Shown here piece after piece: positions 7,564 through 44,675 of a stretch of 64,000 nucleotides of DNA. The first letter of the stretch is position 1, and each line of letters starts with the position of its first letter. The DNA comes from Dehalococcoidia bacterium (lineage in GTDB: Bacteria; Chloroflexota; Dehalococcoidia; Bin125), in contig OZ241375.1 of assembly GCA_965200625.1 (NCBI GenBank), positions 8,234-72,233 on the forward strand, in the 5' to 3' direction. The notes beneath the pieces are model-generated. The model was not told where the DNA came from. It saw only the letters and a program-made list of their open reading frames with translations, and ran no database searches. The translations under genes and the position numbers were made by a program.

Positions 7564-7571
7564 CTAGCTGA

Positions 7572-8018
7572 TTAGCTGCGGGCGGGACGGAAGACGGGCA
7601 GCGTGATCTCGTCGTTGACTTTGCGGAAATCGACCTCGACCGCGAGGTCGCAGCTGACGTCCCGGTCTTCGATCCCGACCAGCGTCGAGTACATATAGGG
7701 GCCTTCTTCGAGCTTGATCAGCGCGACGGTGTAGGGGTACTCGTCCGGCGACCAGCCGGGGAAGTACTGCTGCCACATCCGGATCCACGACCAGACGGTG
7801 CCATGCCCGGAGATGGGGCGCCACTCCCAGTCGTCCTGCAGACAGCGCGGACAGGCCTCGGCCGGAGGGAACCAGGGCAGGTCGCAGATGTTGCAGAACT
7901 GGATCTGGAGGATGCCCTCGCGGCAGCCGTCCCAGAAGGGCTTGGTCAGGCCCAGCACGGGGGGCAGCGGCTTGTCGTAGCTGTGTCCGGCGGGTTGGTC
8001 GTCGGTGGAGGTGGTCAT
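7572..8018 (-). CDS. Zn-ribbon/OB-fold DUF35 protein (partner of the thiolase-like protein)
   Basis: The likely start is MTTSTDDQPAGHSYDKPLPPVLGLTKPFWDGC. CxxC...CxxC zinc ribbon (CNICDLPWFPPAEACPRC). Overlaps the upstream stop (ATGA). Confidence 0.8.
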   Translation of the reverse strand: MTTSTDDQPAGHSYDKPLPPVLGLTKPFWDGCREGILQIQFCNICDLPWFPPAEACPRCLQDDWEWRPISGHGTVWSWIRMWQQYFPGWSPDEYPYTVALIKLEEGPYMYSTLVGIEDRDVSCDLAVEVDFRKVNDEITLPVFRPARS

Positions 8019-9193
8019 CGGTCGTCTCGCTTCAGGATGTGGCCGGTGGCGAGCGGGGCGGCGCAGGCGTAGAGGCCGTACTGCGCGTTGTGAACCTGCC
8101 GCTCGCCGCATTCCTGGCGCAGCTGGCGGACGGCCTCGACGTGCAGCGCCCAGCCTTGCATGTAGGACTCGCTGGTGTGGCCGCCGCCCGTGTTGAGCGG
8201 CAGCTCGCCGCGCAGGCCGATCCGCTCTGGCGTGATCCAGTCGCCGCCCGCGCCGCGTTCGCAGAAGCCCATCCCTTCGAGCGTGAACAGCATCGTCGGG
8301 GTGAAGTTGTCGTAGAGCTGGGCGAAGGCGAGATCCTCGCGCTGCGCCTCGGAGACGGCGAACAGGTCGTCCGCGATCTGCGACATCGGTTCGTGCCAGA
8401 AGTCGTCGGCGACGTAGACAGGGGTGATGTCGGAGGCCTGCGAGGTGGCGTGGATCAGGACGGGCGTGTGCTTGAGGTCGCGGGCGCGCTCGGCGGAGGT
8501 GACGATGAAGCAGACGCCGCCGTCGTTGATCAGGCAGTAGTCGAGCAGGCAGAGCGGCTCGGCGATGAAGCGGGCGGCGTGGTAGTCGTCCATCGTGATC
8601 GGCCGCTGCATGACGGCGTTGGGATTGAGCGCCGCGTTGGCGCGGTTGGAGATTGCCAGGTGGCCGAGCGCCTCAGTCGTGGTGCCGTAGCGGTACTGGT
8701 GGCGGCGGAACATCATCGAGGTCACCGCGCCGGGCGAGGTCATGCCGTAGGGCGCTTCAAACATCGCCTGGGTGGAAATGCCGAGATTCTCGCCGCCGTA
8801 GCGCGCGCCGGCGGAGAGGCCGTTGTTGCCGTAGATGCAGGAGACGACGTCGGCCAGCCCGTTGGCGACCGCGAGCGCGGCGTACTGCAGGGCGATGCCG
8901 GACTGACGGCCCTCGCCGGGCAGGACGTTGACGAAGCGCGGATGGCGCAGGCCGATCATCTCGCACATCCGCCCATAGTGGGGCAGCCGCGAAACGATCA
9001 CGCCGTCCACGTCAGTGCGCCTGAGGCCGGCGTCGCGCAGCGCCTCACGAAAGGCGATCAGCCCCAGCTCATAAGCGGAGCGTTCCGGGTCCAGGTCACG
9101 GTAGATAGCGCCAAACTCAGTCGTGCCCACCCCAACAATGGCGGTCTGGTCCTGCAGGTTGCGCAAGGCGCTGCGGTCGGGTTGAGTTGTCAT
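8015..9193 (-). CDS. thiolase-like (SCP-x/nonspecific lipid-transfer type) protein
   Basis: The likely start is MTTQPDRSAL at ~9193. Thiolase fold (TAIVGVGTTEFG...). The ORF-track N-terminal extension to 9427 runs through a repeat element and is rejected. Confidence 0.85.
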   Translation of the reverse strand: MTTQPDRSALRNLQDQTAIVGVGTTEFGAIYRDLDPERSAYELGLIAFREALRDAGLRRTDVDGVIVSRLPHYGRMCEMIGLRHPRFVNVLPGEGRQSGIALQYAALAVANGLADVVSCIYGNNGLSAGARYGGENLGISTQAMFEAPYGMTSPGAVTSMMFRRHQYRYGTTTEALGHLAISNRANAALNPNAVMQRPITMDDYHAARFIAEPLCLLDYCLINDGGVCFIVTSAERARDLKHTPVLIHATSQASDITPVYVADDFWHEPMSQIADDLFAVSEAQREDLAFAQLYDNFTPTMLFTLEGMGFCERGAGGDWITPERIGLRGELPLNTGGGHTSESYMQGWALHVEAVRQLRQECGERQVHNAQYGLYACAAPLATGHILKRDDR

Positions 9194-9254
9194 GATCGGA
9201 GTATAGGAAGGGCCACGGTCGCGGCCCTTGGTTGGGGTACGGTGCTGGGTGCTC

Positions 9255-9495
9255 AAGACTTCCCCCTTTGGGGGAGCGCTGACCACTTTCGTCATTGCCG
9301 CGCGCCGCCGCGGCAATCTCGATGCGTACAGCAGCGAGGTCCGTGCTCGACGCGGCGAGATACCCGCGACGTAGTCGCGGGTATGACGGGGGAGGGGGCG
9401 CGGGTATGACGGAGGAGGGTGTGGCAAGGGTGCGCGGCGACCCCGCTTCAGTCGCTGCGCGACAGCTTCCCCCCAGTGGGGGGCAGCGAGAGAGC
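9255..9495. repeat. composite REP/BIME-like repeat (hairpin units GTCATTGCCGCG..CGCGGCAATCTCG, ATACCCGCG..CGCGGGTATGACGGAGG, CCCCGCTTCAGTCGCTGCGCGACAGCTTCCCCCCAGTGGGGGG)
   Basis: Near-identical copies at 20775-20985. The element overlaps the 3' end of the CDS at 9448-10269. Confidence 0.8.
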
Positions 9496-10269
9496 CAGCG
9501 CCTCGAGGGCGGTTTGGAATTGGTGGCGGAGGGTTTGGAGGCGTTGGGGGTTGACTTGTTGGGTGGCGGGGTGGAACCAGGGTTCGCTGAGGTACCAGTT
9601 GCGGTTCATTTCGATTTGGATCCAGGGTGGGCCGCCTTCTTTGTAGCGTTGGCCGTGGCGTCGGGTGATGTGGCCGCCCTGGAAAGGGTCGTTGAGGTGG
9701 ATTTGGTCGGGAGGGCAGTGGAAACTTTGGCTGAGGGCTTGGGCGAGTTCGTGGAGGAGGGCGGCGGGAGCGGTTTGGCCGTTTGCGTTGCTGAGGCAGA
9801 AGCGCGGGCGCGGCTCGCCGGGGTGGGGCGCGATGGCGGGCGCGTACTCGGCCATTGAGTGGCAGTCGAGCGCCAGCCGTACCTCCGGGCGCGCCGCCAG
9901 CTGCTCCAGGCGTTGGTGATAGGGGCGCCAGTAGCGGGTCAGCAGGGTCTGCGTGAGGGCGGCGTCGGGGCCCGCGCCGTGCTTCCAGACGGGGACGCGG
10001 TCGGCGGTCAGCGACTTGACCACGCCATCGGGCTGCGCCGGCGGGAGCGCGGTCGGAGGGCGATTGAGGTCAACGACGGCGCGCGCGATGTCAGTCTGCT
10101 GGACGGCGGCGACGGCGCGGCCCAGGTCGTAGATCTCGCGCGTGCAAGCGTCGCCGTCGCTGAAGATGTCGCGCGGTCGGAGGGCGGAGTGGGGCGCGGC
10201 CTCGGGCGGGACGCGGTCGCCGCCGTGCGGGATCGAGAGCAGGATCGGTAGAGGCACGGCGCGGCTCAC
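9448..10269 (-). CDS. N-formylglutamate amidohydrolase (FGase) family protein
   Basis: ORF track. PILLSIPHGGDRVPPE resembles the N-terminus of the FGase/PF05013 family. The C-terminal ...GGKLSRSD is encoded by the repeat element. Confidence 0.65.
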   Translation of the reverse strand: MSRAVPLPILLSIPHGGDRVPPEAAPHSALRPRDIFSDGDACTREIYDLGRAVAAVQQTDIARAVVDLNRPPTALPPAQPDGVVKSLTADRVPVWKHGAGPDAALTQTLLTRYWRPYHQRLEQLAARPEVRLALDCHSMAEYAPAIAPHPGEPRPRFCLSNANGQTAPAALLHELAQALSQSFHCPPDQIHLNDPFQGGHITRRHGQRYKEGGPPWIQIEMNRNWYLSEPWFHPATQQVNPQRLQTLRHQFQTALEALALSLPPTGGKLSRSD

Positions 10270-10275
10270 TGAGTC

Positions 10276-11856
10276 TCACAGGGCCGGGTGCAGGCCGCTG
10301 GGGCCGGCGGCGGAGCCGTCGCGGCGCGGATCGGCGGCGCCCTGGAAGCCGTCCCCGCTCTGGCGGCGGAGGACGGCCTGGACGCAGCCGAGATAGAAGG
10401 CGTACGGGTCGAGCGGCTTGATCTGGTAGCCGGCGGCGCGCAGGCGCTCGGTAATCGCCGGCGCGAAGCGCTCCGCTTCGAGACTGACGAGGCCGTCAAT
10501 GCCGCAGTGCAGACGGGGCGCGTCAATGGAGGCGTCGAGCGGCGCGGAGCCGTCCACGACGCGGTTCAGCACCTGCGCGAGCGAGGAGAAGATGCGCTCG
10601 CTGCCGGGGCTGCCCAGGGCGAGCCAGGGCTGGCGTTCGCGGAAGACGATCGTCGGCGCGGCGGTGGACCAAGGCACCGCGCCGGGTCGCAGATAGTAGG
10701 GATGCGACGGCTCCGCCGTTTCCAGCGCGGAGAGGTAGTTGTTGTAGAGGAAGCCGAGGCCGTCGGCGGCGGCCTTGGAGCCGTAGACCAGCTCGATTGA
10801 CTGGGTGACGGCAATCGCGTTGCCCTCAGCGTCCATGACGGAGAAGTGCGTGGTCTCGCCGATGCCGTCGTGCTCGGGATCGATGGTGGGCAGGCTGGGG
10901 TCGACCTGATCGCGGATCGAGTCGGCGAGGCCGCGGGCGTAGGCGCGGCTGAGCAGCGTCTTGTTGCGCACCTGGGCGTAGGAGTTGGGGTCGAAGGGTC
11001 GGTCGATGCGGCGCAGGAAGGCCTTGCGCAAGGCCTCGGCGAGGAAGTGGACATTGGCGGGAGAGATCGTCGCCAGGGCTTGCGATTCGAGGTGGTTGAG
11101 CATCATCATCAGCAGGAGCAGAATGCGTCCCGCGCCGGGAGGCGGCATCGTGGCGAGGGTGACGCCGCGGTAGCGGCGGCGCAGCGGACGACGGACGATC
11201 GGCCAGGGGATGAGGGCGAGATCGTCGGCGCGGAGGAAGCCGTCGTGGCGGCGCATGTCGGCGTCGATCTGCGCGGCGACCTCGCCCTGGTAGAAAGCCT
11301 CGACGCCGAGGCGGGAGAGCAGCTCGAGCAGGTTGGCGAGGTCGGGCTGGCGGAAGCGGTCGCCGGGCGCGTAGGGCGTCTCGCCGTGCTTGAGGAAGTA
11401 GGCAGCGCCGGAGCGGCCGGCGATGCGGTTGAATTGCGGGAGCTCGCGCTCCTGCAGCTGGTGTTGGAGCGGGGTGATCGGGTAGCCGTCGCGGGCAAGC
11501 TCGAGGGCGGGGGCGAGCACGGCGCGCCAGGGCAGGCGGCCGTAGCGGGCGTGCAGCCAGGCGAGGGTCGCGGGCGTGCTCGGGACAGTGGTCGCGCGGT
11601 GGCCGAGCCGCAGTTCGCGGTCGCGCTCGATCCGTTCGGTGTGGGCCAGCGAGGGCACGCGGCTGGAGCCGTCGAGGGCGAACGTCTCGCCGCCGAGGTG
11701 CGCGAGGGCGACGGTCTGGCCGCCGAGTCCGCTGGCCTGCGGCTCGCAGACGCCGAGCGCGAAGCCGACGGCGCAGGCGGCGTCGGCGGCGTTGCCGCCC
11801 TCGGCGAGCATCCGCGCGCCGGCCTGCGTGGCGTGGGGGAAGGCGGAGGCGACCAT
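10276..11856 (-). CDS. ggt: gamma-glutamyltranspeptidase
   Basis: MVASAFPHATQAGARMLAEGGNAADAACAVGFALGVCEP is a GGT N-terminus, with the characteristic G-rich catalytic-region motifs further downstream. The start is chosen at ~11856 because the ORF-track start overlaps the upstream gene. Confidence 0.85.
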   Translation of the reverse strand: MVASAFPHATQAGARMLAEGGNAADAACAVGFALGVCEPQASGLGGQTVALAHLGGETFALDGSSRVPSLAHTERIERDRELRLGHRATTVPSTPATLAWLHARYGRLPWRAVLAPALELARDGYPITPLQHQLQERELPQFNRIAGRSGAAYFLKHGETPYAPGDRFRQPDLANLLELLSRLGVEAFYQGEVAAQIDADMRRHDGFLRADDLALIPWPIVRRPLRRRYRGVTLATMPPPGAGRILLLLMMMLNHLESQALATISPANVHFLAEALRKAFLRRIDRPFDPNSYAQVRNKTLLSRAYARGLADSIRDQVDPSLPTIDPEHDGIGETTHFSVMDAEGNAIAVTQSIELVYGSKAAADGLGFLYNNYLSALETAEPSHPYYLRPGAVPWSTAAPTIVFRERQPWLALGSPGSERIFSSLAQVLNRVVDGSAPLDASIDAPRLHCGIDGLVSLEAERFAPAITERLRAAGYQIKPLDPYAFYLGCVQAVLRRQSGDGFQGAADPRRDGSAAGPSGLHPAL

Positions 11857-11920
11857 CCCGCGCGGATCGGCTGCGTTGCGCTGGGGTTGACCGTCCGCCG
11901 CGCTGGGGCGGAAGCGGCCC

Positions 11921-14185
11921 TCAACTCGTTGCAGTCGCACGTTCGCTGTTCCTTCGGCGCGAGCGGCGGGGGCGCAGCTCGAGCAGCGTCTCCGCCAACA
12001 GCATCGCGCGTTCCACCAGCGAGTGGCGCAGGATGTACTCGTCGTCGGTGCGCGCGTCGCCGCCGACGGGGCCGAGCCCGTCAATGCGGGCGGCGCTGTC
12101 GGGCGCGAAGCAGATATCGGCGGCGGCCCAGCGGTGGCGGGCGGTGACGGGATGGCTGAGGTCGCGGGCAACGCTCTGGATCGTCTCGAGCAGGGCGCGA
12201 TCACGGTCGGTGGGCTGCAGCGGCGGGCGGCCGGGCCGCGCGGCGACCTGCATCCGCACGCCCGGCACCGTGCGCGCGTTGGCGATCCGTTCGACGTTCT
12301 GATCGAGCGGCGTCCCCGCGGCGGGGTCGGTGAAGCGCAGGATCAAGTCGGTCTCCGCCCGCCAGGGCAGGCGCGCGCCGCCGGCGTCGAAGCGGATGCG
12401 GGTGATGTGCGCGTGGACGCCGCCCTCGGGCTGCTCGGGCAGTGCCGGGTCGGTGTCGGCGTCGAGCGGCGTTGGGCCGCGGCTCAGCTCCTGCAGCGCC
12501 AGGATGCGGTTGCTGAAGTGGCGCAGGACCTGTTCGGCGGAGACGTCGCGGCGCTGGCGGCGGAAGGTGGATTCGAGGTGGTAGCGCTGCTCGCCGGCGC
12601 GGGCGCTGATCAGGGAGCCGTCCGGATCGCCGGATTTGAGGCCGATCACGTGGCGGGCGCGACGGGCGGCCGCGTCGATCAGCGACTGTCCGCCAGCGCC
12701 GTTGTGCGCGCCGTCGCTGGTGAGCAGCACGGCGACCCGCAGCTGGCGCAGACGGCGGATGTGGCGCAGCCCGCGCAGCGCCGCCAGGGCGACGGCGACG
12801 CCGCCCTTCGCTTCCGCCACGCCGGAGCCGTAGAGACGCCGGTCATCGGCGCGGAAGGGCGCCAATTCGCTGGTCGAGGCGCCGGTGTCCAGATGGCCGA
12901 GCAGCAGCACGTCGTCGGTGTCTTCGTGATGGTTGCGGGCGAGCAGGGCGTGGCCGAGCGCGACGCGGGGCAGGCGTTCGACACGGAAGTTGAGCGTTTC
13001 GAGCTGGCGCGCGATCCAGTCGCCGAGCTGGTTGACGCGGTCAACCGCGTCGGTCGGCGTACGGATTTCGACCATCCGCCGCACGCTGTCCTCGATCGTC
13101 GCGGCGCTGCTGCGGATGTGCGTGCGCATCCGCGCGCGGGGACGCTCGGTCTGGTTGGCGGCGGCGTCCGCCTGCTGCGACTCGCGCAGCCGCTCCGCGC
13201 CGAAGTAGCGGATTGCGGCGACGTCGAGCATCCGGTTGATCAGCCCCTCGTAGCTGTAGCCGGCAGTCTGGGCGGCGTGGACGTAGGTGCCAGTCAGGCC
13301 GAGCGAGGCCATCGAGTTGATTTCCAGGATGTAGGGGCGGTTCGCGGCGTCGAGGCGCAGATCGACGCGGGCGAAGTCGTAGAGCTCGAGGCTGCGGAAG
13401 GCGAGCCGCGCGAGCTGCTGCAGCTCGGCGGTCTGCTCATCGCTCAGCGGGGCCGGGCAGAGCTTCTCGCGCGGGCGGCGGAGCTTGTCGCTGTCGGTCT
13501 GAATCGCGTTGGGATCGCCTTCGAGGTCGATCTCGACGATCGGCAGCACCTCCGGGTCGCCGTTGCCGAGCAGGCCAATCGCCAGCTCGCGGCCGGCGAT
13601 GAACTCCTCGACCAGCACGTGCTGGCCAAACTCGTTGATGATCGTCGCCACCGCCTCGCGCAGATCGGTTTCGTTCTCGACGATCCGGATGCCGTAGGAG
13701 ACCGCCTCCATCTTGGGCTTGACGATCAGCGGATGCTCGGGCGTGCAGACGAGGTCGGCGAAGACGTCGTCGACGGAGGCGAAGTTCCAGAATTTGGCGG
13801 TCGGCAGGCCGGCGGCCTGGAACATGATCTTGGCGATCACCTTGTCGAGCGCCATCCCGTGCGCCTGCGGGCCGGAGCCGACGTAGGGCACGCCGAGCAT
13901 CTCGAGCATCGCGGGCAGGTGGGTGTAGCGCGAGACGCCCTGGATCCCGTAGGCCATGTTGAAGACCATCCCGGGCCGCTCGCCGGCGAGCACGCGGGGC
14001 ATGAAGTCCTGCAGGCGTTCGACGATGTGCATGTTGCCGTCGATGATCCGCACGGTGTGCCCGCCCGCCTCCAGCGCTCGCGCCACGCGCTCGACGGTGC
14101 GCGGGTTGTAGCGCTCGCGGTTCTGAGGGCCAAAGACATTGATCACCCCGCTCGCATCACGGTTGTGGACAATGGCGACGCGCAT
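11921..14185 (-). CDS. fusion protein: N-terminal D-Ala-D-Ala-ligase-like ATP-grasp domain plus C-terminal M20-family metallopeptidase (ArgE/DapE/CPG2-like)
   Basis: Start MRVAIVHNRDASGVINVFG, with a GGGGAAGG SD-like sequence upstream. The C-terminal domain has LLLGHLDTGAS...GVAEAKGG, as in M20 peptidases. Confidence 0.8.
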   Translation of the reverse strand: MRVAIVHNRDASGVINVFGPQNRERYNPRTVERVARALEAGGHTVRIIDGNMHIVERLQDFMPRVLAGERPGMVFNMAYGIQGVSRYTHLPAMLEMLGVPYVGSGPQAHGMALDKVIAKIMFQAAGLPTAKFWNFASVDDVFADLVCTPEHPLIVKPKMEAVSYGIRIVENETDLREAVATIINEFGQHVLVEEFIAGRELAIGLLGNGDPEVLPIVEIDLEGDPNAIQTDSDKLRRPREKLCPAPLSDEQTAELQQLARLAFRSLELYDFARVDLRLDAANRPYILEINSMASLGLTGTYVHAAQTAGYSYEGLINRMLDVAAIRYFGAERLRESQQADAAANQTERPRARMRTHIRSSAATIEDSVRRMVEIRTPTDAVDRVNQLGDWIARQLETLNFRVERLPRVALGHALLARNHHEDTDDVLLLGHLDTGASTSELAPFRADDRRLYGSGVAEAKGGVAVALAALRGLRHIRRLRQLRVAVLLTSDGAHNGAGGQSLIDAAARRARHVIGLKSGDPDGSLISARAGEQRYHLESTFRRQRRDVSAEQVLRHFSNRILALQELSRGPTPLDADTDPALPEQPEGGVHAHITRIRFDAGGARLPWRAETDLILRFTDPAAGTPLDQNVERIANARTVPGVRMQVAARPGRPPLQPTDRDRALLETIQSVARDLSHPVTARHRWAAADICFAPDSAARIDGLGPVGGDARTDDEYILRHSLVERAMLLAETLLELRPRRSRRRNSERATATS

Positions 14186-14299
14186 GAACACCTTCCCCTG
14201 AGCACTGGCCGCAATCAGCGCGTCCGGCGCACTGCGGGCACTGTATGAGCAGAGTGCAGCCGCAACTAGCGGCCCATGTAATATCTGGCTCCCTGCCCA

Positions 14300-14480
14300 G
14301 CGCTCTCCAGAGAGGGAGCGCTGACTTCCGTCGTTCCTGCGAACGCAGGAACCCATCCGGCGTAGCGCTCAGGCGCTCACAGTGGGCAGCCCGCACGGTG
14401 ACCGGATCATTCGTCTGGGTTCCCGCTTTCGCGGGAACGACGGAAGGGGGTGAGCGGAGAGATGATGGGGGGGGGGGTGC
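14300..14480. repeat. REP-like hairpin repeats (CGTCGTTCCTGCGAACGCAGGAACCCA; TGGGTTCCCGCTTTCGCGGGAACGACGG) ending in a G11 homopolymer (14467-14477)
   Basis: Inverted repeats are readable. The G-run lies ~65 bp upstream of the FN3 gene start codon. Confidence 0.75.
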
Positions 14481-14543
14481 TACCGTGCATTGACGGATTA
14501 TGGCGGCTGACCTGCTTGGGGTTGGCGTGGAAAGGGTTGGGCT

Positions 14544-16780
14544 ATGCGGCTCGTGCGACTGTTGGTGGGGTTGGCGGCGCTGGTGGCGGTTTTGGCGGGC
14601 GGCTCGCTGGCGTTGGGGCAGACCTATGACGCGGGGCTGAACGCGAGCGTATCGGGCACGTATGTGCACGTGACCTGGAACGGCGACGTGGACGCGCCAG
14701 GGGGAGAGCAGGCGACCGGGTTTGCGCTGCAGCGGGCGGTCGCAGGGACGGAGCTGGGCGAGTGCAGCGACGCTCCGAGCGCGAGCGTGAGTCGGTTCCC
14801 GGAGTCGGGAGAGCTGAGCAAGGACGACTTCCGGAACTACACCGCAGTCGCGCTGACGCCGGGACAGAGTACACCTTCCGGCTCTGCGGGGCGTACGGGA
14901 GCAACGATACGTCGTACGCCATTCAATCGGTGAACGCCACGACGACCAGTCCCGCCGCCCTCGAGGGGCTCACCCTGGAGAAGATGGGCGGCAGCGTGCG
15001 GCTCAGCTGGAACGAGTACTCGAACGCTGACGGCGAGACCGCAGACCGTTACCGCCTCAATTGGGGACCGCTGGACACCGCCGCCAGCGGCGATGCCCAG
15101 TACCGGCGCATCCGGGAGAGCCGGGCGACCAAGGCGCAGGACGACATCTGCGACGCCGACGGCCTCTGCGCCATGAACATCATCGGCTTGACGAACGGAA
15201 CCGCGTACGGGTTCTGGGTGTTCGCGACCTACGCCGGACAAGGCGGCGGTCATGCCGCGGAGACGGAGCCGCGGACGGAGACGCCGGAGCTGCTCGAGCT
15301 GAAAGGCTTGACGCTCAGCGGCACGGCGGACGGCAAGCTCCTGGTCGAATGGGCCAGTGGTCCGAGTGGGACACAGCACTACCACGTGCGCTGGAAGGAA
15401 ACCGGCAGCATCGGCTGGCAGGGCATCATGCTGGACAAAGACGAGCGCAGCGTGGAGCTCGGCGGGATCACGCTGGGACACGACGTCTCGGTGGAAGCGG
15501 AAGCGCTGGTCGCCCGCAACCCGAGCATTGTCGCGGCGCGGGCGGAGGGCGAGACCTCGGCGCACATCGCGGTCAGCGCCAGCGCCGAGGCGCGGACCGG
15601 CACGCTCCACGTCGCCTGGGAGGTGCCGGACGACGTGGATCTGAGGAACGACTGGGGCGTCAACCGCTGGTCGATCACCTGTAAGCCGACGGATCCGGCG
15701 CACGGGTCGGGCGGCGGCAACATCAACCCGCCGGCGGACCATGATCACACGCTGCCCGTCCTGCCGATCGTGGAGCATCAGGTCACGATCAAGGGGCTGA
15801 CCTCCGACAACCGAGTGGTGGCGATGGGCAGCGCGACCGGCACGCCGAATCCGCTGCCGACGGCGCCCGCGATCGTGCCGCTGGGCGCGGTCACGACGAC
15901 GACGGTCGCCGCGGAATTCCCCGCAGTCCCCTACGATCCCGAGAATCCCGACAACCCCGAGGCGGGACCCAGCGTGCCGCCCGGCATTCGGGTTGAGTGG
16001 GAGTTGCCTGCGGGCGTCGCCGCCAATGACGTCAGCGTCTGGCGGGTCTGTGTGGACGGGCTGTGCTACCCGAACAATACGGTGAGCTCGGGGAGCACCC
16101 TGCGCGTGGTCTGGATTGGCTGCACGGAGGACGCCAACGAGATCTGCGACCCGGGTGAGCACGTCGTCAGCCCGAATCATCCGATTCAGATGAACACCTG
16201 CCACGAGATCGAGGTCACGGCCCTGAACCAGCACGAGCAGGTGCTGACACAGGGCACGGGCGAGGGCTGGGTGCTGGATCACAACGGCAACCCACCCGCC
16301 TGCGCCCCAGCCCCGCCGGCAGACGAGGAAGAAGAAGCCGAGCCGGGCGGCAGCGGCAACAACGTCGGAGGCGGCGGTGACAGCGGTGGAGGCGGTAACA
16401 GTGGCAACACGTACACGCCGCCGACGTCCAACTACGTACCGCAGTCCGCGTCGCAGCCGACGCCTGCGCCGCAGCCGGCACCCAAGTTAGCGATTGAAAC
16501 GATTGATCTGAGCCTGAGCTCACAGACGACCCTGCTGCGGGAGGTCGTGACGGCGACCATCGCGCTGAGCACCAGCGCCGGCGCGGCCATTGACGATACG
16601 GTCATGATCGATGTCAGCGGCGATCTGAATCTGCGCGTGCTGGACGTTGATCTGGAGGCGGGCGTTGCGTCTACCAACGGTGAGGTGACGGTGAGCTTTG
16701 AGGTTGTCGGCGGCGGTGGCTCGTCGACGATTACGGCGATGGTCGGCGATGACGATGATCCGGTGACCGCCTCGGCGTAG
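14544..16780 (+). pseudogene. large secreted fibronectin-type-III repeat protein (signal peptide, multiple FN3 modules, Gly/Pro-rich region), interrupted by a -1 frameshift at ~14861
   Basis: ORF 14544..14933 (frame 0, signal peptide MRLVRLLVGLAALVAVLAGGSLALG) and ORF 14762..16780 (frame 2) overlap. The FN3 consensus ...ALTPG|TEYTFRLCGAYGS is restored if one G is added to the GGG run. Confidence 0.7.
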
Positions 16781-17038
16781 GTGACGTTGGAGGCGGATCT
16801 GGACTGTTTGGCCGCGCGAGAGTGGAAGCTGGATACGTTCATGGTCTGGGCTTGCGAAGGCGAGATCGGGGCGGCGGAACTGTACGACGCCCTGCAGGAC
16901 GTTGGCTCGAGCGCCATTCTCTACTGGGATCGGGAGTCCGGCTGGCAGCGGTATGCGCAGTTGGCGAACGGGCAGCAGGTACCGGGTTCGGTTGAGTTCC
17001 AGCTGTCGCAGCACAGCATCGTGTGGTTGGCGAGCTAG
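16781..17038 (+). CDS. hypothetical small protein (85 aa), GTG start abutting the upstream stop
   Basis: ORF track, with a strong GC3 bias. Confidence 0.35.
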   Translation: MTLEADLDCLAAREWKLDTFMVWACEGEIGAAELYDALQDVGSSAILYWDRESGWQRYAQLANGQQVPGSVEFQLSQHSIVWLAS

Positions 17039-17039
17039 C

Positions 17040-17135
17040 CCCGCCGTGGCTGGGGGGCAGCGTCCCCCCAGCCCCTCCCTCCCCCCCCCAGTCACTTCGT
17101 GAGAATTCCCCCAGAGAGGGAGCTCTTGCGGGGCG
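17040..17135. repeat. REP-like repeat with a C9 tract (17081-17089)
   Basis: CCCCCCCCCAGTCACTTCGTGAGAATTCCCCCAGAGAGGGAG motif. Confidence 0.7.
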
Positions 17136-17161
17136 TATGCTGGGGGAGTGAATGGGGGGTG

Positions 17162-17473
17162 ATGGCGATTTTCAATACGGCTCGGTTGATGGGGGTGTTG
17201 GTTCGGGGGCGGATTGCGGAGCCGGAGAGGCAGATGGAGGCGGCGTTGGCGGAGTATGGGAGGCTGGATCGGATGGAGGCGATGGAGGCGCGGATCCTGC
17301 AGGCGCTGGCTGGGGTGTTGGCGCAAATGGCTGAGTTGGAGGCGAAGGCGGCGGCGCGGGAGGCGCAGGCGGCGGCGCGGGAGACTCGGCAGGCTCGGCA
17401 TCTCAATCAGGCGGTGGGGGTGATCCTGGGGGGGATTGCGATTGCGGTGGGGTTGATTATTGGGCTGGGGTGA
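17162..17473 (+). CDS. hypothetical protein with a coiled-coil and a C-terminal TM helix (MAIFNTARLMGVLVRGR...GVILGGIAIAVGLIIGLG)
   Basis: Internal ATG of ORF 17099..17473. Confidence 0.4.
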   Translation: MAIFNTARLMGVLVRGRIAEPERQMEAALAEYGRLDRMEAMEARILQALAGVLAQMAELEAKAAAREAQAAARETRQARHLNQAVGVILGGIAIAVGLIIGLG

Positions 17474-17487
17474 GCTGGCGGGGTTTG

Positions 17488-17650
17488 GGCGGCCCCCCTC
17501 AGTCACTTCGTGACAGCTCCCCCAGCGGGGGAAGTGCCCCGTCAGGGGAGATGGGGGGCTCTCCGGAGGCGCGGGACTTGGGCTCCCCCTTTAATCGCTT
17601 TGCGACGGCTTCACCCTGCTGGGGCAGCGAGGGTTGGGGGGATGGGAGGT
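17488..17650. repeat. REP-like repeat cluster
   Basis: CCCCTCAGTCACTTCGTGACAGCTCCCCCAGCGGGGGAAGTGCCCCGTCAGGGG and related motifs. Confidence 0.7.
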
Positions 17651-17717
17651 GTTGCGGGTTGGGTGGGGGTGCGCTATTTTCGGGCTCACGGCGCGTTTGA
17701 TGCTGGAGGGTGGCGCT

Positions 17718-20700
17718 ATGCGGGGCTCCGATTTCCGATCTCTCTTCCCGATGGGGCGCTGTGCTTCCTTGTTCCTGCTGGTTCTGCTGGCGGTTGGGGG
17801 TGGGCTGAGCCTGGGTTCGCTGCCGGCTGGCGCCCACACGAGCAGCAACCACGGCTACGTCACGCTGCTCGAGACGACGATGGTTGCCAAAGAGGAAAAT
17901 CTTGGGGCCCGGATCGGCCACGTTCGAGATAACGGTGCTTTGGCGGCAAAGACTTTCATTTATAAGGGGATCGAATATCACATTGACGGTATGTACGAGG
18001 ATACACAGGGTGAGGATACATTTAAATTCAGGACAACAAGGCCGCCTTCCACCAACTCGGACATCGGTCTGACGGAGGTCAACAAACTCAAGATTGAGAT
18101 CGATGGCAAGACCTTTGAAGGAGGATTTACGGCAGATACCTTCAGCACGAGGTACACACAGGCCGACAAGGGGTTAGATCTCTCAGACAACAAGACCGAA
18201 GCCACGAAGGCGACCGTCAAGATCAGCACGAAGGAGGTCCACCACGTCGCGCCTACCAACATTGCGGCTACCGCGCAGGGGACCACGACGCTCAGAGTAA
18301 CGTGGAACGACCCCCCCCGGGGCGACGGGCTTTCAGATCAGGCATAAGGCCACGAGCACCAGTACCTGGGGCTCCTGGTCGACGGCCACATTGTCAAATC
18401 CGAGTGACATTACGGGCCTGACGAGGGGCACGTCGTATAACATCCAGGTGCGGGCGGGCACCAACTCGGAGCCGGGGAACTGGGGCGCCGGGATCACGGC
18501 GTCGACGCCGACCCTGGACGCGCCCACCGGCGTTGCGGCGACGTCGCCTTCTTCAAGCCAGCTCACGGTCACGTGGAACGCTGTGACCGATGCGGACAGC
18601 TACCAGGTACGGTACAAGGCGTCGGGGACCAACAGCTGGGGGCACTGGGGAACGGCGACCTCGCCCACACCATCAACAACCTGGCGGCGAACACGCAGTA
18701 CGACATCAGCGTGCGGGGGCGGGACGGCAGCGACGCGGGCGATGCCACGACAATCATGAACGTGAGGACTTTGCGGCTGGCGGCGCCGGGCAACCTGGCG
18801 GCGACGTCGTCCGTCTCCACCCAGCTGGTGGTCACGTGGAGCGCCGTGACCAACGCGGCCAACTATCAGCTCCGGTACAAGCTCAACAGCAGCAGCAGCT
18901 GGGGGAGCTGGGGGACGGCGACCTCGCCGCGCACGATTACGGGTCTGACGGCGAACACGCAGTACAACATCGAGGTGCGGGCGCGGGACAGCAGCAATAG
19001 CGAGGGGGACGCTGCCGCCGTCACGGCGAGGACGCTGCTGGCTCCGCCGACCAATGAGGCGGCGGCGGCGGCGGTCGCGACCGAGCTGACGGTGACGTGT
19101 ACGGCGGTGAGCGGCGCGGCCAGCTATGAGGTGCGGCACAAACGATCCAGCACGAGCTCCTGGGGGAGCTGGGGAGCGGCGTCCTCGCCGCACGAGATTA
19201 CGGGGCTGACGGCGAATACGGAGTACGACATCGGCGTTCGGGCGAAGGACAGCAGCAACAACGCGGGGGAGGTGGCGAGCATCACGAACGTGCGGACGCC
19301 GCTGTCGCCGCCGACGGGGTTGTGGCATCCGACGGATACGGATGACTATGACCCGCGGTTCGGCAGATTCGGCAGCGGCTGGTGGGATGAGGACATGATC
19401 ACCGTGTTCTGGAACGCGCTGACTGATGCGGCCTCCTATGAGATGCGCTATCGCGCGGTCAAGGGGACGCAGGAGGATACCTGGTCGGCCTGGGCGGACG
19501 CCGATGAGTTTGACCGCGAGCATGGGCTGACGCTGTCTGATCTGTTCCCGGCGTACGCGGGGATCGAGTACGAGATCGAATTGCGGGGCGTGCATAGCAG
19601 CAACCGCAAGGGCGAGGCGACGTCGTACACGGCGCAGACGAAGTACAACGCGCCGACGGCGGTGTCCAATGTGCGGGTGGCGTCGAACGACGGGGAGCTG
19701 GCGGTCGCCTGGACGCCGAGGCGCCACAATGAGAGTTGGAGCGTGCGGTCGGAGCGGTAGGATGTGAACCAGATCGCGTCGGTGTCGGCGTCCGCGCCAC
19801 ACACGACGCTCACGGAGCTGGAAAGTGGCGTGGCGTACGGGATCCGGGTGCAGGCGCAGCGGGATCTGGGGACGGATCCGTTTGGCACACATCACATCGT
19901 GACCACGGGTTGGAGCGCCGTTGTCTACAGTATGCCAATGACGGCGCCGGGGTCGCTGACGGTGACGCCGGTGACGACTCGGGATCCGGACTTGATCTAT
20001 CGGCCACGGTTCCCGCTGCTGCCGCCGGGCACGCCGCTGCCGCCGCTGCCGGGGCTGCGGCCGGATGACGAGATTGTGAAGGACGGAGAGGCGCTGGAGA
20101 TCAGTTGGGAGGCGGTCGCGGGCGCGGCGACGTACGGCGGCTATCAAGTGGCGTTCCATCCGGGGAACAAAGCGCCGTCGAGCTGGCATACGCTGCTGCT
20201 GGAGGGGACGTCGTTCACGGTCGCGGGGGTGGATCCGTTGTATGTGGTGAGCGTGCGGGCGGTGGCGCAGATGCCGGATGATTCGATAGTCTACGGGCCG
20301 TACGCGAGCACTAGCGGCGTGATCGGGGTGAATCCGTCACCCAGTCCGGGTCCCAGTCCCAGCCCGTCGCCGAGTCCCAGCCCGAGTCCGAGTCCGCCAC
20401 AGGAGCCGATTGTGAGTCCGCATCCACCGTCTGGGGTGCGGCCAGTGCAGCCGAGTCCGCCGGTTGAGCAGCCGGGGATCAAACCGCCGACGGAGGGCAA
20501 GCCGCAGGAGCCAGCGGAGAGGGAGAGGCGGACTGCGCCGCCGGGCGCGCCGCCGCCGGACGACGGGGTGGGGATTAATCCACCGGGTCCGCCGCCGGGG
20601 CCGCTGCCGGAGCCGCCGGAGGACAGGCCGCCACCGAACGATGAGCCGCGGCCGGGTCTGCCGGGTCCGCCGCCGGATGACCGAGCGGGCATCTTCGGCC

Positions 20701-20726
20701 TCCTGTCGGGGGGGATGGTGCACTAG
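17718..20726 (+). pseudogene. very large secreted FN3-repeat protein (signal peptide, ~7 FN3 modules, Pro/Ser-rich C-terminus). Disrupted by a +1 insertion in a C8 run (18311-18318), a -1 change at the CCC run at 18664-18666, and an in-frame TAG at 19758-19760.
   Basis: Consecutive ORFs 17634..18347 (frame 0), 18391..18759 (frame 1), 18573..19760 (frame 0) and 19764..20726 (frame 0) all carry the same FN3 periodicity (L.V.W...YQVRYK...WG.WG...ITGLTANTQY.I.VRA). The domains continue seamlessly across each break. Confidence 0.7.
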
Positions 20727-20734
20727 CTGGCTGC

Positions 20735-21350
20735 GGGGGGAGCCCCCCTCAGTCACTTCGTGACAGCTCCCCCGGTGGGGGAGCGCTGAGCACTTTCGTC
20801 ATTGCCGCGCTCCGCCGCGGCAATCTCGATGCGTACAGCAGCGAGGTCCGTGCTCGACGCGGCGAGATACCCGCGACGTAGTCGCGGGTATGACGGAGGA
20901 GGGCGCGCGGGTATGACGGAGGAGGGGGCGGCAAGGGTGCGCGGCGACCCCGCTTCAGTCGCTGCGCGGTAGCTTTCCCCTTTGGGTGAGCGCTGAACAC
21001 TTTCGTCATTGCCGCGCTCCGCCGCGGCAATCTCGGCGTGTACAGCAGAGTGGTCCGTGCTCGAAGCGTCGAGATACCCGCGGCAAGCGCGGGTATGACG
21101 GAGGTGGATGGCGCGGGAACGACGGAGGTTGGTGGGCGCGGAGCTGGTGGAGTAGAGCGGGGAGTCCCCTCAGTCCACCCTTCTGTCATTGCCGCGCGCC
21201 GCCGCGGCAATCTCGGCGCGTACAGCAGAGTGGTCCGTGCTCGAAGCGTCGAGATACCCGCGGCAAGCGCGGGTATGACGGAGGTTGGTGGGCGCGGGAA
21301 CGACGGAGGTGGTGGGTGCGGGGATGATGGGGCTCGCCTCCATTTGTGTG
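20735..21350. repeat. tandem array of four ~150-210 bp composite REP/BIME-like units
   Basis: Units start at about 20775, 20986 and 21181. Each contains the GTCATTGCCGCG(c/t)(c/g)CCGCCGCGGCAATCTCG and GAGATACCCGCG...CGCGGGTATGACGGAGG hairpins. Confidence 0.85.
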
Positions 21351-21357
21351 GGGGTGG

Positions 21358-22272
21358 TCAGCTGAGGCCGAGGCGGTGGCGGGCGTTGGTGGCTAGCACT
21401 TGGTCTAGTTCTTGGTCGGTGAGACCGCTGCGGAGGAGTTGGAGGATTTGTGGCTGTTGGTCGGCGCCGGGGGCGTCGGAGCCGAAGAGGACGCGCTCCA
21501 CGCCGAGCGTGCGGATCAGCCGGGCGGCGTCCTCGAGGGCGCAGGCGCGGCGGCCGTCGCGGCAGCGGAAATGGCCGTCGTCGAAGCCGCCGGCGGTGTC
21601 GAAGAGCACCTGGGGGAAGCGTCTGGCGATCGCCAGGCGCTGATCCCAGTACGCGCCGGGCATGTGCGCCATGATGAACGGGAGCCGCGGGAAGCGTTCG
21701 AAGACGGGGATGAAGTGGTCGGGCATCCCGTAGACGTCGGCGCCGGGGCCGCCGCGCAGGGCGCCGGTGTCGCTGAGGATGGGCAGGCCGAGCTCCTCGA
21801 GTCGGGCGTAGAGCGGGAGCATCCGTTCGTCGGCGGGGAAGTAGCGGCCCAGGCCCGGGTGCATCTTGACGCCGCGCGCGCCCAGGGCGACGCCGCGCTC
21901 TAACTCCTCCATCAGCAGGTCGGTCTCCGTCCAGGTGCCGATGTCACAGCAGAGGAAGGTGCGGATGCGCGGGTCGGCCTGCTGGCGTTCGAGCGTCCAG
22001 GTGTTGAAGTCGCGCACGCGCTGGCGGAGCATGGTGTGAATGTCGTCGTCCGACGCTTCGGGCCGGCGGGCGCGCTGCTGCTCGAACATTTCGGGGATGA
22101 CCATGTAGTTGAGGCCGACGATCGCCTCGACGTCGTTGCGGGTCATGTACTCCGCGCAGGCTTCGCCGTTGGCCCAGCGCCAGTCGAGCGGGAGGCCGGG
22201 GCGAGGGAAGACGATCGCCTCTTGCTGCGCGGTGCGGCAGAGGTGGACGTGGACATCGATCACGGTGGGCAT
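21358..22272 (-). CDS. amidohydrolase-2 family (TIM-barrel metal-dependent hydrolase, LigI/ACMSD-like)
   Basis: ORF track. MPTVIDVHVHL... is the typical PF04909 N-terminal HxH. Confidence 0.85.
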   Translation of the reverse strand: MPTVIDVHVHLCRTAQQEAIVFPRPGLPLDWRWANGEACAEYMTRNDVEAIVGLNYMVIPEMFEQQRARRPEASDDDIHTMLRQRVRDFNTWTLERQQADPRIRTFLCCDIGTWTETDLLMEELERGVALGARGVKMHPGLGRYFPADERMLPLYARLEELGLPILSDTGALRGGPGADVYGMPDHFIPVFERFPRLPFIMAHMPGAYWDQRLAIARRFPQVLFDTAGGFDDGHFRCRDGRRACALEDAARLIRTLGVERVLFGSDAPGADQQPQILQLLRSGLTDQELDQVLATNARHRLGLS

Positions 22273-22391: not shown

Positions 22392-23246
22392 TCAGCCCTC
22401 CGAGACGGCCACTCCCACGGTGATGACCCCTGTGTAGCCGTTCCTGTCTTCAGCGACCGAAGCGAGCAGATTCCATTCCTCGGGATTCCCCCGCAGCTCC
22501 CCGTCATTTTCGTTGCGGGTTGAGCGGTTGGGGCGATTGTTGTAGGGGGAGCGGAGGTAGACCTGATCCGTCAGTTCGTCGTCGAAGTAGAATTGCGAGG
22601 TCAAGAACGTCGTCCCGCGGTAGTGGACCTTGAAGTGGATGTGCGCGGTCCGTCCAGGGTACCAACCTGGGTAGACGGTCTCAAAGCGCGCGATGCCATC
22701 GGCGTCGGTCACCTGTACTCCGCGCAGGAAGGTCTCGCCGGACGTGTCCAGGCCCCCGAGTTGACCGCGGTATCCCGAGTAGACGCCATCGGCGTCGGCG
22801 TGCCACAGGTCGACCACGGCGTCTGGGAGCGGCGCGCAGGTATTGCCCATTCGCAGGACGCGGACCGCCATCGCCAGCGGGGCGCCGGAGCGGTCTTCAG
22901 TGATGTCGCGCCGGAGCATCTCGGTGTCGAAGTAGAACGGCCCTTCGGTTGCCTCCGGGGTGAGGATGCAGGCGGGCGGATCGGAGAGCGCGTCCGCCAC
23001 GGAGGCGGTGTCCGTCGTCGCGGTCTGCGCCGCGGCCCTTTCCCCACTCGCGGCCGTTGCGGAGCTGGCGGACGCCGGCTGAACCTCCTCCTCGACAGGG
23101 CCAGGGGCCGCCGTGCCGGGTTCTCCACTCCCGGGCACTCCCCGGCAGGCCGCCGCGAGCGCCACCGCGAGCCCGCCCACACCGAACGTCGCGAGGAAGT
23201 CACGCCGCGTGAATCGCGCTGACCACTGGCGGGCGTTCTTCATCAT
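22392..23246 (-). CDS. intradiol ring-cleavage dioxygenase family protein with a Tat signal peptide
   Basis: RRDFLATFGVGGLAVALAAACRG, and TEGPFYFD...VDLWHADADGVYS...GRTAHIHFKV (PF00775-like). Confidence 0.8.
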   Translation of the reverse strand: MMKNARQWSARFTRRDFLATFGVGGLAVALAAACRGVPGSGEPGTAAPGPVEEEVQPASASSATAASGERAAAQTATTDTASVADALSDPPACILTPEATEGPFYFDTEMLRRDITEDRSGAPLAMAVRVLRMGNTCAPLPDAVVDLWHADADGVYSGYRGQLGGLDTSGETFLRGVQVTDADGIARFETVYPGWYPGRTAHIHFKVHYRGTTFLTSQFYFDDELTDQVYLRSPYNNRPNRSTRNENDGELRGNPEEWNLLASVAEDRNGYTGVITVGVAVSEG

Positions 23247-44212: not shown

Positions 44213-44336
44213 ATCGCCCTGTCGTTTGGCTGCGTTCCTCCGGCTCACTGTAGCGGGGACGCGGGAAGCGGGGGCGGCTCTTTCGAGCTGCCCCCGCTCC
44301 AACCGGTCCCCGCGGAGGGGGCTGGGCCGCCGGTGC

Positions 44337-44675
44337 TTAGACAGCGGCCGGGCCCCGTTCGCGGGTGCGCACGCGGACGGCGTCCTCGACGGGCAGGACG
44401 AAGATCTTGCCGTCCCCGATTTGGCCACTCGCCGCGTTCTCGACAATCGCGTCAATCACGTCGTCCAGGGGCGTCGTGTGGATCACGATTTCGATCTTGA
44501 TCTTGGGCAGGTAATCAACCTGCACCTGCTGGCCACGGAATTCCTGGACGACGCCCTTCTGCGCGCCGCGGCCGCGGACTTCGGAGATGGTCATCGAGAC
44601 GATCCCGATTGCTTCGAGCGCCGTGCGCACGACGGAGAGACGCTCGGGGCGGATGATGGCGATCACCAGTTTCAT
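44337..44675 (-). CDS. glnB: nitrogen regulatory protein P-II
   Basis: MKLVIAIIRPERL...RGRGAQKG...GDGKIFV is unmistakable P-II. Confidence 0.9.
   Translation of the reverse strand: MKLVIAIIRPERLSVVRTALEAIGIVSMTISEVRGRGAQKGVVQEFRGQQVQVDYLPKIKIEIVIHTTPLDDVIDAIVENAASGQIGDGKIFVLPVEDAVRVRTRERGPAAV

Follow-up and report, generated by a model that had tools for sequence, protein, structure and literature searches.

A Probable Pseudogene for a Secreted FN3-Array Protein in a Sponge-Associated Dehalococcoidia and Its Independently Disabled Paralogs

Organization of the Locus

The DNA analyzed here is a window of 64 kb (the whole stretch under study) from a sponge-associated Dehalococcoidia (Chloroflexota) MAG. 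Within the window lies a gene for an array of FN3 modules behind a signal peptide that is interrupted at three positions (table 1). Its reading path starts in frame 0, passes into frame +1 at a run of eight cytosines (C8), returns to frame 0 at a CCC run, and then meets an in-frame TAG. The repaired protein comprises 1002 amino acids and consists of the signal peptide, an orphan N-terminal domain, seven FN3-type modules, and a PS/Pro-rich tail. A preliminary description of this DNA had named the signal peptide, the continuous FN3 series, the extra C in the C8 run, the missing C at the CCC run, and the in-frame TAG, and all of these are correct at every coordinate.

Table 1. Features of the FN3-array gene and its surroundings (positions within the window)
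Feature	Position	Strand	Remarks
Neighbouring FN3 gene (signal peptide and FN3), frameshifted	14544..16780	+	GGG run 14861-14863 lacks 1 nt
REP-like intergenic repeat	17487..17532	+	Upstream of the gene
Shine-Dalgarno-like GGAGGG	17705..17710	+	Ends 7-8 nt upstream of the ATG; read directly from the sequence
Signal peptide, aa 1-39	17718..17834	+	Charged n-region, then hydrophobic core; predicted cleavage between ...PAGA and HT
Orphan N-terminal domain, aa 40-176	17835..18245	+	Predicted all-beta; no Pfam match
FN3 module 1	18246..18516	+	Split by the C8 insertion; Pfam fn3 and Pur_ac_phosph_N matches on the repaired protein; translation
Lesion 1: C8 run, one C too many, +1 frameshift	18311..18318	+	Frame 0 then stops at 18345-18347
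Out-of-frame coding segment, read in frame +1	18319..18663	+	End of module 1 and start of module 2
FN3 module 2	18517..18776	+	Split by the 1-nt deletion; Pfam fn3; repeat families D3, D4, D7, D10
Lesion 2: CCC instead of CCCC, 1-nt deletion	18664..18666	+	Restores frame 0; context TCG-CCC-ACA
FN3 modules 3 and 4	18777..19301	+	Tandem repeat of 261-264 nt, 75% DNA identity; repeat family D1; Pfam fn3
Module 5, divergent FN3-like with insert (GLWHPTDTDDYDPRFGRFGSGWWDED...)	19302..19646	+	Family-specific
Module 6, divergent FN3-like, contains the in-frame TAG	19647..19937	+	Alignment with three paralog modules
Lesion 3: in-frame TAG (nonsense), module 6	19758..19760	+	Variable loop position; paralog alignment
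Module 7, divergent FN3-like with Pro-rich insert	19938..20330	+	56% identical to P0140
(PS)n and Pro-rich tail	20331..20726	+	Ends ...PPPDDRAGIFGLLSGGMVH then TAG; translation
REP-like repeat	20737..20782	+	Directly 3' of the stop; behind it, a second repeat family forms an array that extends to about 21330

The translation signals of the first ORF appear intact, and the ATG at 17718 opens 209 codons that end at 18347. Cleavage of the signal peptide would be expected at the position given in table 1, and the signal peptides of the paralogs have a matching layout (...SHA or ...AHA followed by HT). The sole match of the orphan N-terminal domain among 5.8 billion proteins was the gene's own fragment, and the domain is 48% identical to the N-terminal domain of one paralog (L043, described below). 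A single-sequence AlphaFold2 model of the domain reached a pLDDT of 42 and was unusable. The repaired protein matches the Pfam family fn3 (PF00041) in four stretches (E = 2e-38, 130.8 bits with a gathering cut-off of 25 bits), the best fn3 stretch being aa 267-338 in module 2, and a precomputed annotation of the 395-aa fragment of the gene also labels fn3. P0139, P0142, and the paralog L046 all conserve module 5. The terminal stop of the gene is the TAG at 20724-20726, and since the PPPDDR(A/P)G(I/M)F ending also occurs in P0140 it represents the natural C-terminus. No anchor domain was detected by Pfam in the PS/Pro-rich tail of the repaired protein.

The gene is located in a variable island. 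The syntenic site is empty of it in 35 related species, and the FN3 gene was not found within 10 kb on either side of the amidohydrolase in the 35 related genomes; the absence from these syntenic sites indicates that the gene is accessory and dispensable. The neighbouring FN3 gene is called with an identical split (129 aa plus 616 aa) in the ENA assembly L002 (see below). An 85-aa ORF at 16781-17038 is a candidate read-through remnant of the upstream gene, and a search across the TAG junction of that gene gave no match. Overall, both FN3 genes of the window are broken (2/2) versus one out of ~50 others (p ~ 0.002, uncorrected for gene length). The unit of ~106 bp that holds the upstream REP-like repeat is tandemly duplicated in L002, and scans of the locus for Rfam elements, promoters, and terminators were empty or at chance level.

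Three Lesions along One Coding Path

Homology and coding signal run on through both frame changes and the internal stop. Removal of one C from the C8 run gives ...LRVTWNDPPGATGFQIRHKATSTSTWGSW..., in which the residue spacing agrees with the sibling modules, and the addition of one C at 18664-18666 gives ...WGTATSPHTINNLAANTQYDISV.... Between the two sites, frame +1 contains no stop codon (the remaining frames contain two and three) and the GC3 peak (0.85) shifts to the phase of frame +1, so that the third-position GC peak passes from coordinate phase 2 to 0 and back to 2 across both shift sites. In modules 1-4 the conserved ACGTGK motif (T-W of strand B) is located at 18300, 18571, 18834, and 19095, and the resulting spacings of 271, 263, and 261 nt equal 270 + 1, 264 - 1, and 261. 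The repeat registers are 263 nt apart before 18664 and 264 nt apart after it. This module periodicity supports exactly one inserted and one deleted base. Judged from the homology along its length, the path through three frames cannot be explained by chance. The TAG at 19758 is aligned to D, G, and R in the paralogs and to S/T/N in the sibling modules (hand alignment of the translation).

Presence of the Lesions in Separate Assemblies

The same C8, CCC, and TAG were identified in a separate ENA assembly (L002, ERZ25068762, 3x coverage) and in Logan assemblies of at least two SRA runs (L003 and L004 from SRR33960554, L005 from SRR33991098). The C8 run and the CCC at 18664-18666 are shared by L002, L004, and L005, and the TAG at 19758 is shared by L002 and L003. 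The L004 contig was found in three samples, and the lesions are fixed across the samples. L002 contains an extra 106-bp tandem copy and is therefore not the same assembly as the window, and the lengths of the G11, C9, and C8 tracts are equal in both. Two synonymous SNPs (18155 C/T and 19799 A/G) separate the Logan contigs from the window, and the lesions are therefore common to at least two haplotypes. Judged from the other assemblies and runs, the lesions are real and do not stem from errors of assembly. Two synonymous population SNPs would in themselves suit continuing constraint, a number (n = 2) without statistical weight.

Frameshifts across the window were assessed by Pfam coverage, a GC-phase frame plot being too noisy on strand calls. 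About 40 other ORFs were scanned, and all but one seem intact; since most of them are near full-length in Pfam, the assembly is not riddled with indels. A CoA-transferase-like gene (55233-56693) that was suspected to be truncated proved to be one continuous ORF.

Paralogs in a Co-occurring Genome

An exhaustive phmmer search with modules 5-7 against 1.84 billion representatives returned only fragments (222, 344, 294, 365, and 183 aa) as specific relatives. The fragments represent three paralogs, all located in a second genome of the Chloroflexota (circular, 2.84 Mb, ERZ25068043) that co-occurs with the first and comes from the same sponge samples. No intact homolog was found among the 1.84 billion representatives, with the source genome examined within the window. 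A search with the full-length protein returned generic FN3 proteins only (at most 34% identity) and missed the gene's own fragments, because long, repetitive proteins crowded the candidates, and six peptide patterns identified no relative in the JGI metagenomes.

Each paralog is broken at sites of its own that differ from those of the others. In the L041 paralog, a TGA interrupts the signal peptide and a TAG lies 8 codons from the position of the TAG in the window, the L043 paralog carries at least two frameshifts, and the L045/L046 paralog carries three frameshifts and a fourth in one assembly only. The proximity of the two TAGs is not significant (an estimated ~30% chance of such a pair among 16 lesion pairs). 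The family is known only from disabled copies, one in this genome and three in the second genome, and the tally of disabled genes thus comprises the four members of the family, from two genomes, and the neighbouring FN3 gene, which is unrelated to them.

The signal peptide, head domain, and FN3 array recur in the L045/L046 paralog, whose C-terminus consists of SLH repeats (PF00395). Pfam did not find this domain in the window gene, and within the family it is present only in L045/L046. The SLH repeats suggest a cell-wall location for the family. The C-terminus of the window gene had earlier been described as a putative wall or S-layer tether; its tail has no recognised anchor, and the proposal is supported only indirectly, by the SLH domains at the end of a paralog from the other genome.

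Alternative Explanations

The preliminary description had left open whether the interruptions are homopolymer sequencing errors or the mark of a phase-variable surface protein. In the former case the true gene would be intact and C8, CCC, and TAG would be consensus errors. The C8 run is indeed a homopolymer, the classic context of indel errors, and the contig names (ctgN_Nx_l/c) presumably indicate long-read metagenome assemblies. Assemblies can also disagree, as seen between L045 and L046/L047, which differ by 1 nt at about 4585 (long-read assembly versus Logan). A systematic homopolymer bias at C8 is possible but would leave the other two lesions standing, and CCC for CCCC and a TAG-creating substitution are atypical error modes that are not of the homopolymer type. 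All three lesions are identical across the window, L002, and the Logan contigs, where they occur on a haplotype set apart by two SNPs. Together with the constant G11, C9, and C8 tracts in L002 and the mostly full-length genes elsewhere in the window, this contradicts the proposed sequencing errors and makes an artefact extremely improbable. As a phase-variable contingency gene, the locus would toggle its surface protein through slipped-strand mispairing at the C tract. The C8 tract is located in the 5' part of the gene, five out of the seven runs of at least 7 nt in the 64-kb window fall in this 6-kb island, and one of these, a G11 tract, precedes the neighbouring FN3 gene by 67 nt. However, homopolymers are not over-represented given the base composition (own estimate), the paralogs are continuous at the equivalent site, and the assembly comparison revealed no variation in tract length (C8 in the window, L002, L004 with its three samples, and L005; G11 unchanged in L002). 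Furthermore, a C7 allele would stop at 18757-18759 owing to the deletion at 18664 and would then face the TAG at 19758. With these two lesions in place no C-tract length restores the protein, and phase variation is very improbable.

The sequence CCC-C is a +1-prone site for tRNA-Pro, and in insect endosymbionts polymerase slippage on homopolymers rescues frameshifted genes. Recoding could produce the full-length protein through a +1 slip on CCC-CCC-CC, a -1 shift at 18664, and amber read-through, and a skip over a single C of the run recreates the repaired reading exactly (candidate junction peptide NDPPGATGF). This would require three independent low-efficiency events, which multiply to a negligible yield, and G-CCC-A, the second site, is not a slippery sequence. 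The locus yielded neither an Rfam element nor another stimulatory structure, and the window contains no tRNA genes, suppressor tRNAs included. The paralogs read on without interruption at the positions that correspond to C8 and CCC, and their own lesions lie at differing positions, unlike genuine programmed sites, which argues against programmed frameshifting or read-through. Recoding of amber as sense (pyrrolysine or code 15) conflicts with the conserved genes of full Pfam length that terminate at TAG within the window, where this codon is an ordinary terminator (e.g., CoA-transferase, 5181-6392), and there is hardly any probability that the intact protein is still made by recoding. A truncation with retained function, in which the secreted 209-aa head is all that the gene still makes and the remainder serves no purpose, is compatible with the gene being a pseudogene and does not exclude it. 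The RBS, ATG, signal peptide, and whole N-terminal domain are intact upstream of the first lesion, and the fixation of the lesions in several samples also suits such a product. On the other hand, the stub would finish with an incomplete FN3 strand and 11 residues from the wrong frame, and the TGA in the signal peptide of the L041 paralog indicates that preservation of the head is not general within the family. A functional truncation is therefore quite unlikely, and the 209-aa product or low-level slippage products could be functional.

Interpretation

The locus is most likely a recently inactivated pseudogene for a lineage-specific, secreted FN3-array cell-surface protein, and its family is most likely decaying in parallel. 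A decayed pseudogene was among the options first proposed, and the shared lesions and independently broken paralogs support it. The ancestral gene would have encoded a protein of ~1000 aa with a signal peptide, a beta-rich orphan head, seven FN3 modules (four canonical, three divergent), and a PS/Pro-rich stalk. It is now interrupted by three independent point lesions, a slippage-type +1 C (C7 to C8), a 1-nt deletion, and a nonsense TAG. Probably one inactivating mutation came first and the others followed by neutral accumulation, under relaxed selection or selection for the loss of the surface protein in the sponge. The inactivation appears recent because coding statistics and module consensus remain intact. 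From the present DNA, translation from the RBS and ATG would yield only a 209-aa secreted stub consisting of the head domain, ~22 module 1 residues, and a tail of 11 residues read out of frame (NDPPRGDGLSDQA), and the downstream ORFs, which lack signal peptides, are best read as untranslated remnants. It is unlikely that the pattern reflects, instead of passive decay, a parallel selected loss of an adhesin, or that the head stub or C-tract slippage products are still in use. Selected loss would concern a surface or S-layer-associated adhesin of co-resident sponge symbionts and might provide, for example, escape from phages that use it as a receptor or from host recognition.

As a decaying pseudogene the locus is ordinary in kind, and the pattern of parallel breakage is modestly interesting. 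For annotation, the locus should count as one pseudogene and not as three or four "hypothetical proteins." Public protein collections contain the 209-aa and 395-aa fragments as separate proteins (with a 222-aa alternative call of the latter), and the exact 320-aa sequence was not found in a look-up of the protein collections, yet other contigs carry a gene call for it. Domain censuses tally FN3 "eukaryote-like" proteins as symbiosis factors, and as several such genes are dead here, domain counts can overstate the functional repertoire. The breakage of all family members across two co-occurring genomes is a small and testable example of a surface protein being lost within a host-associated community.

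Comparison with Known Systems

"Eukaryote-like" FN3 proteins are reported to be frequent and often secreted in sponge symbionts (PMC3909097). The gene resembles bacterial surface proteins with FN3 (PF00041) repeats in its tandem FN3 modules behind a signal peptide and in its sponge-associated host lineage, and differs from them in that it is broken and that its head and modules 5-7 have no homolog beyond two genomes. The SLH end of the L045/L046 paralog is shared with SLH-anchored, S-layer-associated proteins, whereas the window gene ends in a PS/Pro-rich tail with no recognised anchor.

Poly-G/C tracts control phase-variable surface genes at the homopolymer-tract contingency loci of Campylobacter, Neisseria, and Haemophilus. 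The window gene likewise contains a frame-setting poly-C tract in the 5' third of a gene for a surface protein, but its tract displays no length polymorphism, cannot restore the ORF, and is accompanied by additional irreversible lesions. The gene also corresponds to bacterial pseudogenes that arise by homopolymer slippage, small indels, and nonsense mutations ("frameshifted; internal stop"), with which the gene shares cross-frame homology, several independent lesions, and intact coding statistics. Like typical bacterial pseudogenes it is accessory and located within a variable island, and unlike them it belongs to a family in which every member detectable here is independently disabled, a pattern beyond one random event.

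Reading frames and anatomy of the FN3-repeat gene

A continuous series of FN3 modules running through two frame changes and an in-frame TAG, as proposed in the preliminary description of the gene at 17718-20726, was confirmed by the reading frames, the spacing of a conserved motif, the repeat registers, the phase of third-position GC and Pfam. Between the two shift sites, frame +1 contains no stop and the other two frames contain two and three. Removal of one C from the C8 run and addition of one C at 18666 yields a protein of 1002 amino acids with a single internal stop that matches Pfam fn3 in four stretches (E=2e-38). The strand B motif ACGTGK is conserved in modules M1-M4 (at 18300, 18571, 18834, and 19095) at spacings of 271 (270+1), 263 (264-1), and 261 nt, and the repeat-register spacing is 263 nt 5' and 264 nt 3' of 18664; both tests are internal to the sequence and independent of databases. 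The third-position GC peak lies in coordinate phase 2 outside the two sites and in phase 0 between them. The part encoding the head domain (17718-18310) is markedly poorer in GC than the remainder of the gene and than the genome (0.53, 0.46, and 0.70 at codon positions 1, 2, and 3; GC3 elsewhere 0.81-0.89).

Module boundaries (table) are our own delimitation on the translation of the repaired gene. Modules M3 and M4 share 75% identity in DNA, and no recognized anchor was found in the tail. The C-terminal PPPDDR(A/P)G(I/M)F is common to the gene and its homolog P0140, which argues that the present stop is the natural one.

Features of the FN3-repeat gene, its repaired product and the flanking repeats
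Feature	Position	Strand	Remarks
Shine-Dalgarno-like GGAGGG	17705-17710	+	5' of ATG 17718
First ORF, frame 0, 209 aa	ATG 17718, stop 18345-18347	+	enters C8 run 18311-18318
Frame +1 segment	18319-18663	+	sole open frame
Return to frame 0	CCC 18664-18666	+	TCG-CCC-ACA; homology resumes in frame 0
In-frame TAG	19758-19760	+	frame 0 continues beyond to terminal TAG 20724-20726
Signal peptide	aa 1-39
Head domain			137 aa; no Pfam match
M1-M4			four canonical FN3 modules
M5-M7			three divergent FN3-like modules
Tail			(PS)n and Pro-rich
REP-like intergenic family CAGTCACTTCGTGACAGCTCCCCC	17076-17121, 17487-17532, 20737-20782, 27421, 55084
REP-like intergenic family CGCGGGWAYGACGGAGG	9376-9415, 14430, 20883-21309, 27592, 58086, 60224, 61512

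The internal TAG falls in a variable loop of the family alignment where paralogs have D, G, and R, and by hand alignment the sibling modules M1-M4 carry S, T, or N at this position. One plausible single-step origin would be from TCG. Amber recoding of the TAG is unsupported: TAG terminates conserved genes in the window as well as the gene itself, and the window contains no tRNA genes.

The lesions recur in other assemblies

Exact-sequence look-ups traced the ORF fragments to a 10.5-kb contig of an ENA assembly (L002, ERZ25068762 ctg107089_3x_l) and in Logan contigs of SRR33960554 (L003 and L004, the latter seen in three samples) and SRR33991098 (L005). In BLAST comparisons with the window, L002 is identical over the entire gene, the L003 match spans the TAG with a single mismatch, L004 has no gap across either shift site, and L005 covers 17702-18678 gap-free with one mismatch. 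Relative to the window, the Logan contigs carry two synonymous third-position changes, at 18155 (C/T) and 19799 (A/G), indicating that two or more haplotypes bear the three lesions. A 106-bp intergenic unit (matching window 17496-17602) has one more tandem copy in L002 than in the window, which shows that this contig does not duplicate the window's assembly; the G11, C9, and C8 runs are equally long in both. The window assembly is clean overall, and most of the approximately 40 other ORFs scanned have near full-length Pfam matches.

Paralogs are broken independently

Of 5.8 billion proteins, the head domain matched none but the gene's own fragment, and no relative was found in the JGI metagenomes. 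When M5-M7 were searched exhaustively with phmmer against 1.84 billion cluster representatives, the only hits to rise above the generic FN3 background were short fragments: P0123 (222 aa, the gene's own), P0139 (344 aa), P0140 (294 aa), P0142 (365 aa), and P0143 (183 aa). Every non-self fragment maps to one other genome, a circular 2.84-Mb contig (ERZ25068043 ctg12660_38x_c), and also to Logan contigs from the same series of SRA runs.

At one locus of this second genome (L041), P0139 and P0140 adjoin in one frame with a TAG between them ('WTAGNHND*WTVSHF') and the signal peptide carries an in-frame TGA. At another (L043), P0142 lies within a gene whose frame is shifted by a +1 insertion (ACT-A-TAT) and again ahead of the PS-rich tail. 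A full homolog of the window gene, with signal peptide, head domain, FN3 array, and M5-M7 (L045/L046), runs on through one more FN3 module and three SLH repeats and is divided across three frame changes. A fourth frameshift in L045, a long-read assembly, results from a T missing at ~4585 (ATACGA-CCAGAG) that is present in both Logan assemblies (L046/L047); it stems either from an error in assembly or from polymorphism between strains (5 SNPs separate the loci over 12.5 kb). No two lesions of the gene and its paralogs coincide, which indicates that each copy was disabled independently after the copies diverged. The TAG of L041 is only 8 codons from that of the window gene in the alignment, a proximity that is not read as meaningful given an estimated chance of ~30% for one such pair among the ~16 lesion pairs compared.

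Position 17319-21098 of L043 holds an FN3 gene of a different type, comprising small ORFs (109, 35, 82, and 94 aa) followed by an ORF of >1241 aa, a string that suggests further frameshifts; the ORF immediately 5' ends in SLH repeats. The long-read L041 has an unbroken histone-deacetylase-family gene (14885-15904, 339 aa), which L042 (14885-15831), a Logan contig of SRR33960554, carries in two parts (195 + 109 aa).

Genomic context

Counterparts of the neighboring amidohydrolase (21358-22272, minus strand) with 85-90% identity occur in 35 species-level genomes. These are all MAGs labeled Dehalococcoidia or Chloroflexota, many with isolate names that read as sponge-metagenome bins. In them, ACAD, LUD, and the amidohydrolase are followed by a gap of 1.6-7 kb and then the CoA-transferase, and no FN3 homolog was found within 10 kb. 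In the window, by contrast, CoA-transferase and amidohydrolase are ~13.8 kb apart (about 7570-21350), with a formylglutamate amidohydrolase, GGT, a Ddl-M20 fusion, and the FN3 cluster in between, and an extra dioxygenase (22392-23246) separates the amidohydrolase from the LUD/CCG gene. This comparison indicates that the FN3-repeat gene is accessory and located in a variable island; both regions form a variable hot spot. Two REP-like families (table), dispersed through the window and far more frequent than expected by chance, flank the FN3 genes, the broken gene on both sides. Five of the seven homopolymers of at least 7 nt in the window lie between 14.4 and 20.8 kb. A G11 tract (14467-14477), of the same length in L002, lies in a divergent intergenic region 67 nt ahead of the upstream FN3 gene's ATG.

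This upstream gene (14544-16780) is also frameshifted, one G being short at 14861-14863 (CCG-GGA-CAG, where 'ALTPG|TEYTFRL' is expected), so that the signal peptide and first FN3 strands (129 aa) and the remainder (616 aa) lie in different frames, a split also called in L002. Its ORF stops at TAG 16778-16780. The frame then continues into an 85-codon ORF (16781-17038) with high GC3, which also ends in TAG, and next comes 17039-17473. The 85-aa ORF, for which neither a Pfam match nor a homolog was found, is either a separate gene or a C-terminal remnant severed by a nonsense TAG. Elsewhere, a DNA methyltransferase (N6_N4_Mtase)-HNH fusion (42812-44455, minus strand) has an in-frame TGA (43262-43264) inside its SAM-binding motif ('IVLDPFCG*ATACVAAEQLGRRWIGIDVS') and looks like another pseudogene.

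A probable, recently inactivated pseudogene

The FN3-repeat gene is probably a recently inactivated pseudogene. A decayed pseudogene is one of the readings entertained in the preliminary description and the one supported by three real, fixed lesions in several assemblies, the independent breakage of paralogs, and the lack of an intact relative in any searched collection. Sequencing error, also entertained there, is highly improbable: a systematic bias at C8 is conceivable, depending on the read technology of the runs, but the identical lesions in L002-L005, partly on a second haplotype, and the largely full-length ORFs elsewhere contradict an error. Neither the CCC deletion nor the TAG is an error of the homopolymer type, which leaves the gene broken whatever the status of C8. 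A phase-variable surface protein, the remaining suggestion, would fit the poly-C tract in the coding region, as in contingency loci, and is nevertheless very unlikely, since a C7 allele would still meet the second frameshift and the TAG, and C8 does not vary in length across the assemblies examined. A +1 slip at the C run is plausible, yet a triple recoding that produces the full-length protein would have to use a second site that is not slippery, and paralogs do not share the lesion positions; we consider it barely credible. That the stub retains a function is compatible with a pseudogene, though unlikely.

For the pseudogene, absence from related species argues that the gene is dispensable, and the intact GC3, module consensus, RBS, and signal peptide suggest that inactivation was recent. 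One lesion may have inactivated the gene, with the others following neutrally; the driver would be relaxed selection or positive selection for losing a surface protein. The only product that the DNA allows from the gene's own start is the 209-aa secreted head-domain stub.

Comparison with known systems

The family-wide pattern is of modest interest: the family is seen only as broken copies, in two co-occurring sponge symbionts, and this bears on censuses of 'eukaryote-like' FN3 proteins in sponge symbionts (for context, PMC3909097). The gene belongs to the class of FN3-repeat bacterial surface protein genes, now as a pseudogene. A poly-C tract within the coding region likens it to contingency loci, whose two functional hallmarks it lacks, and it is related to the SLH-anchored paralog (L045/L046), although it carries no SLH repeats itself.
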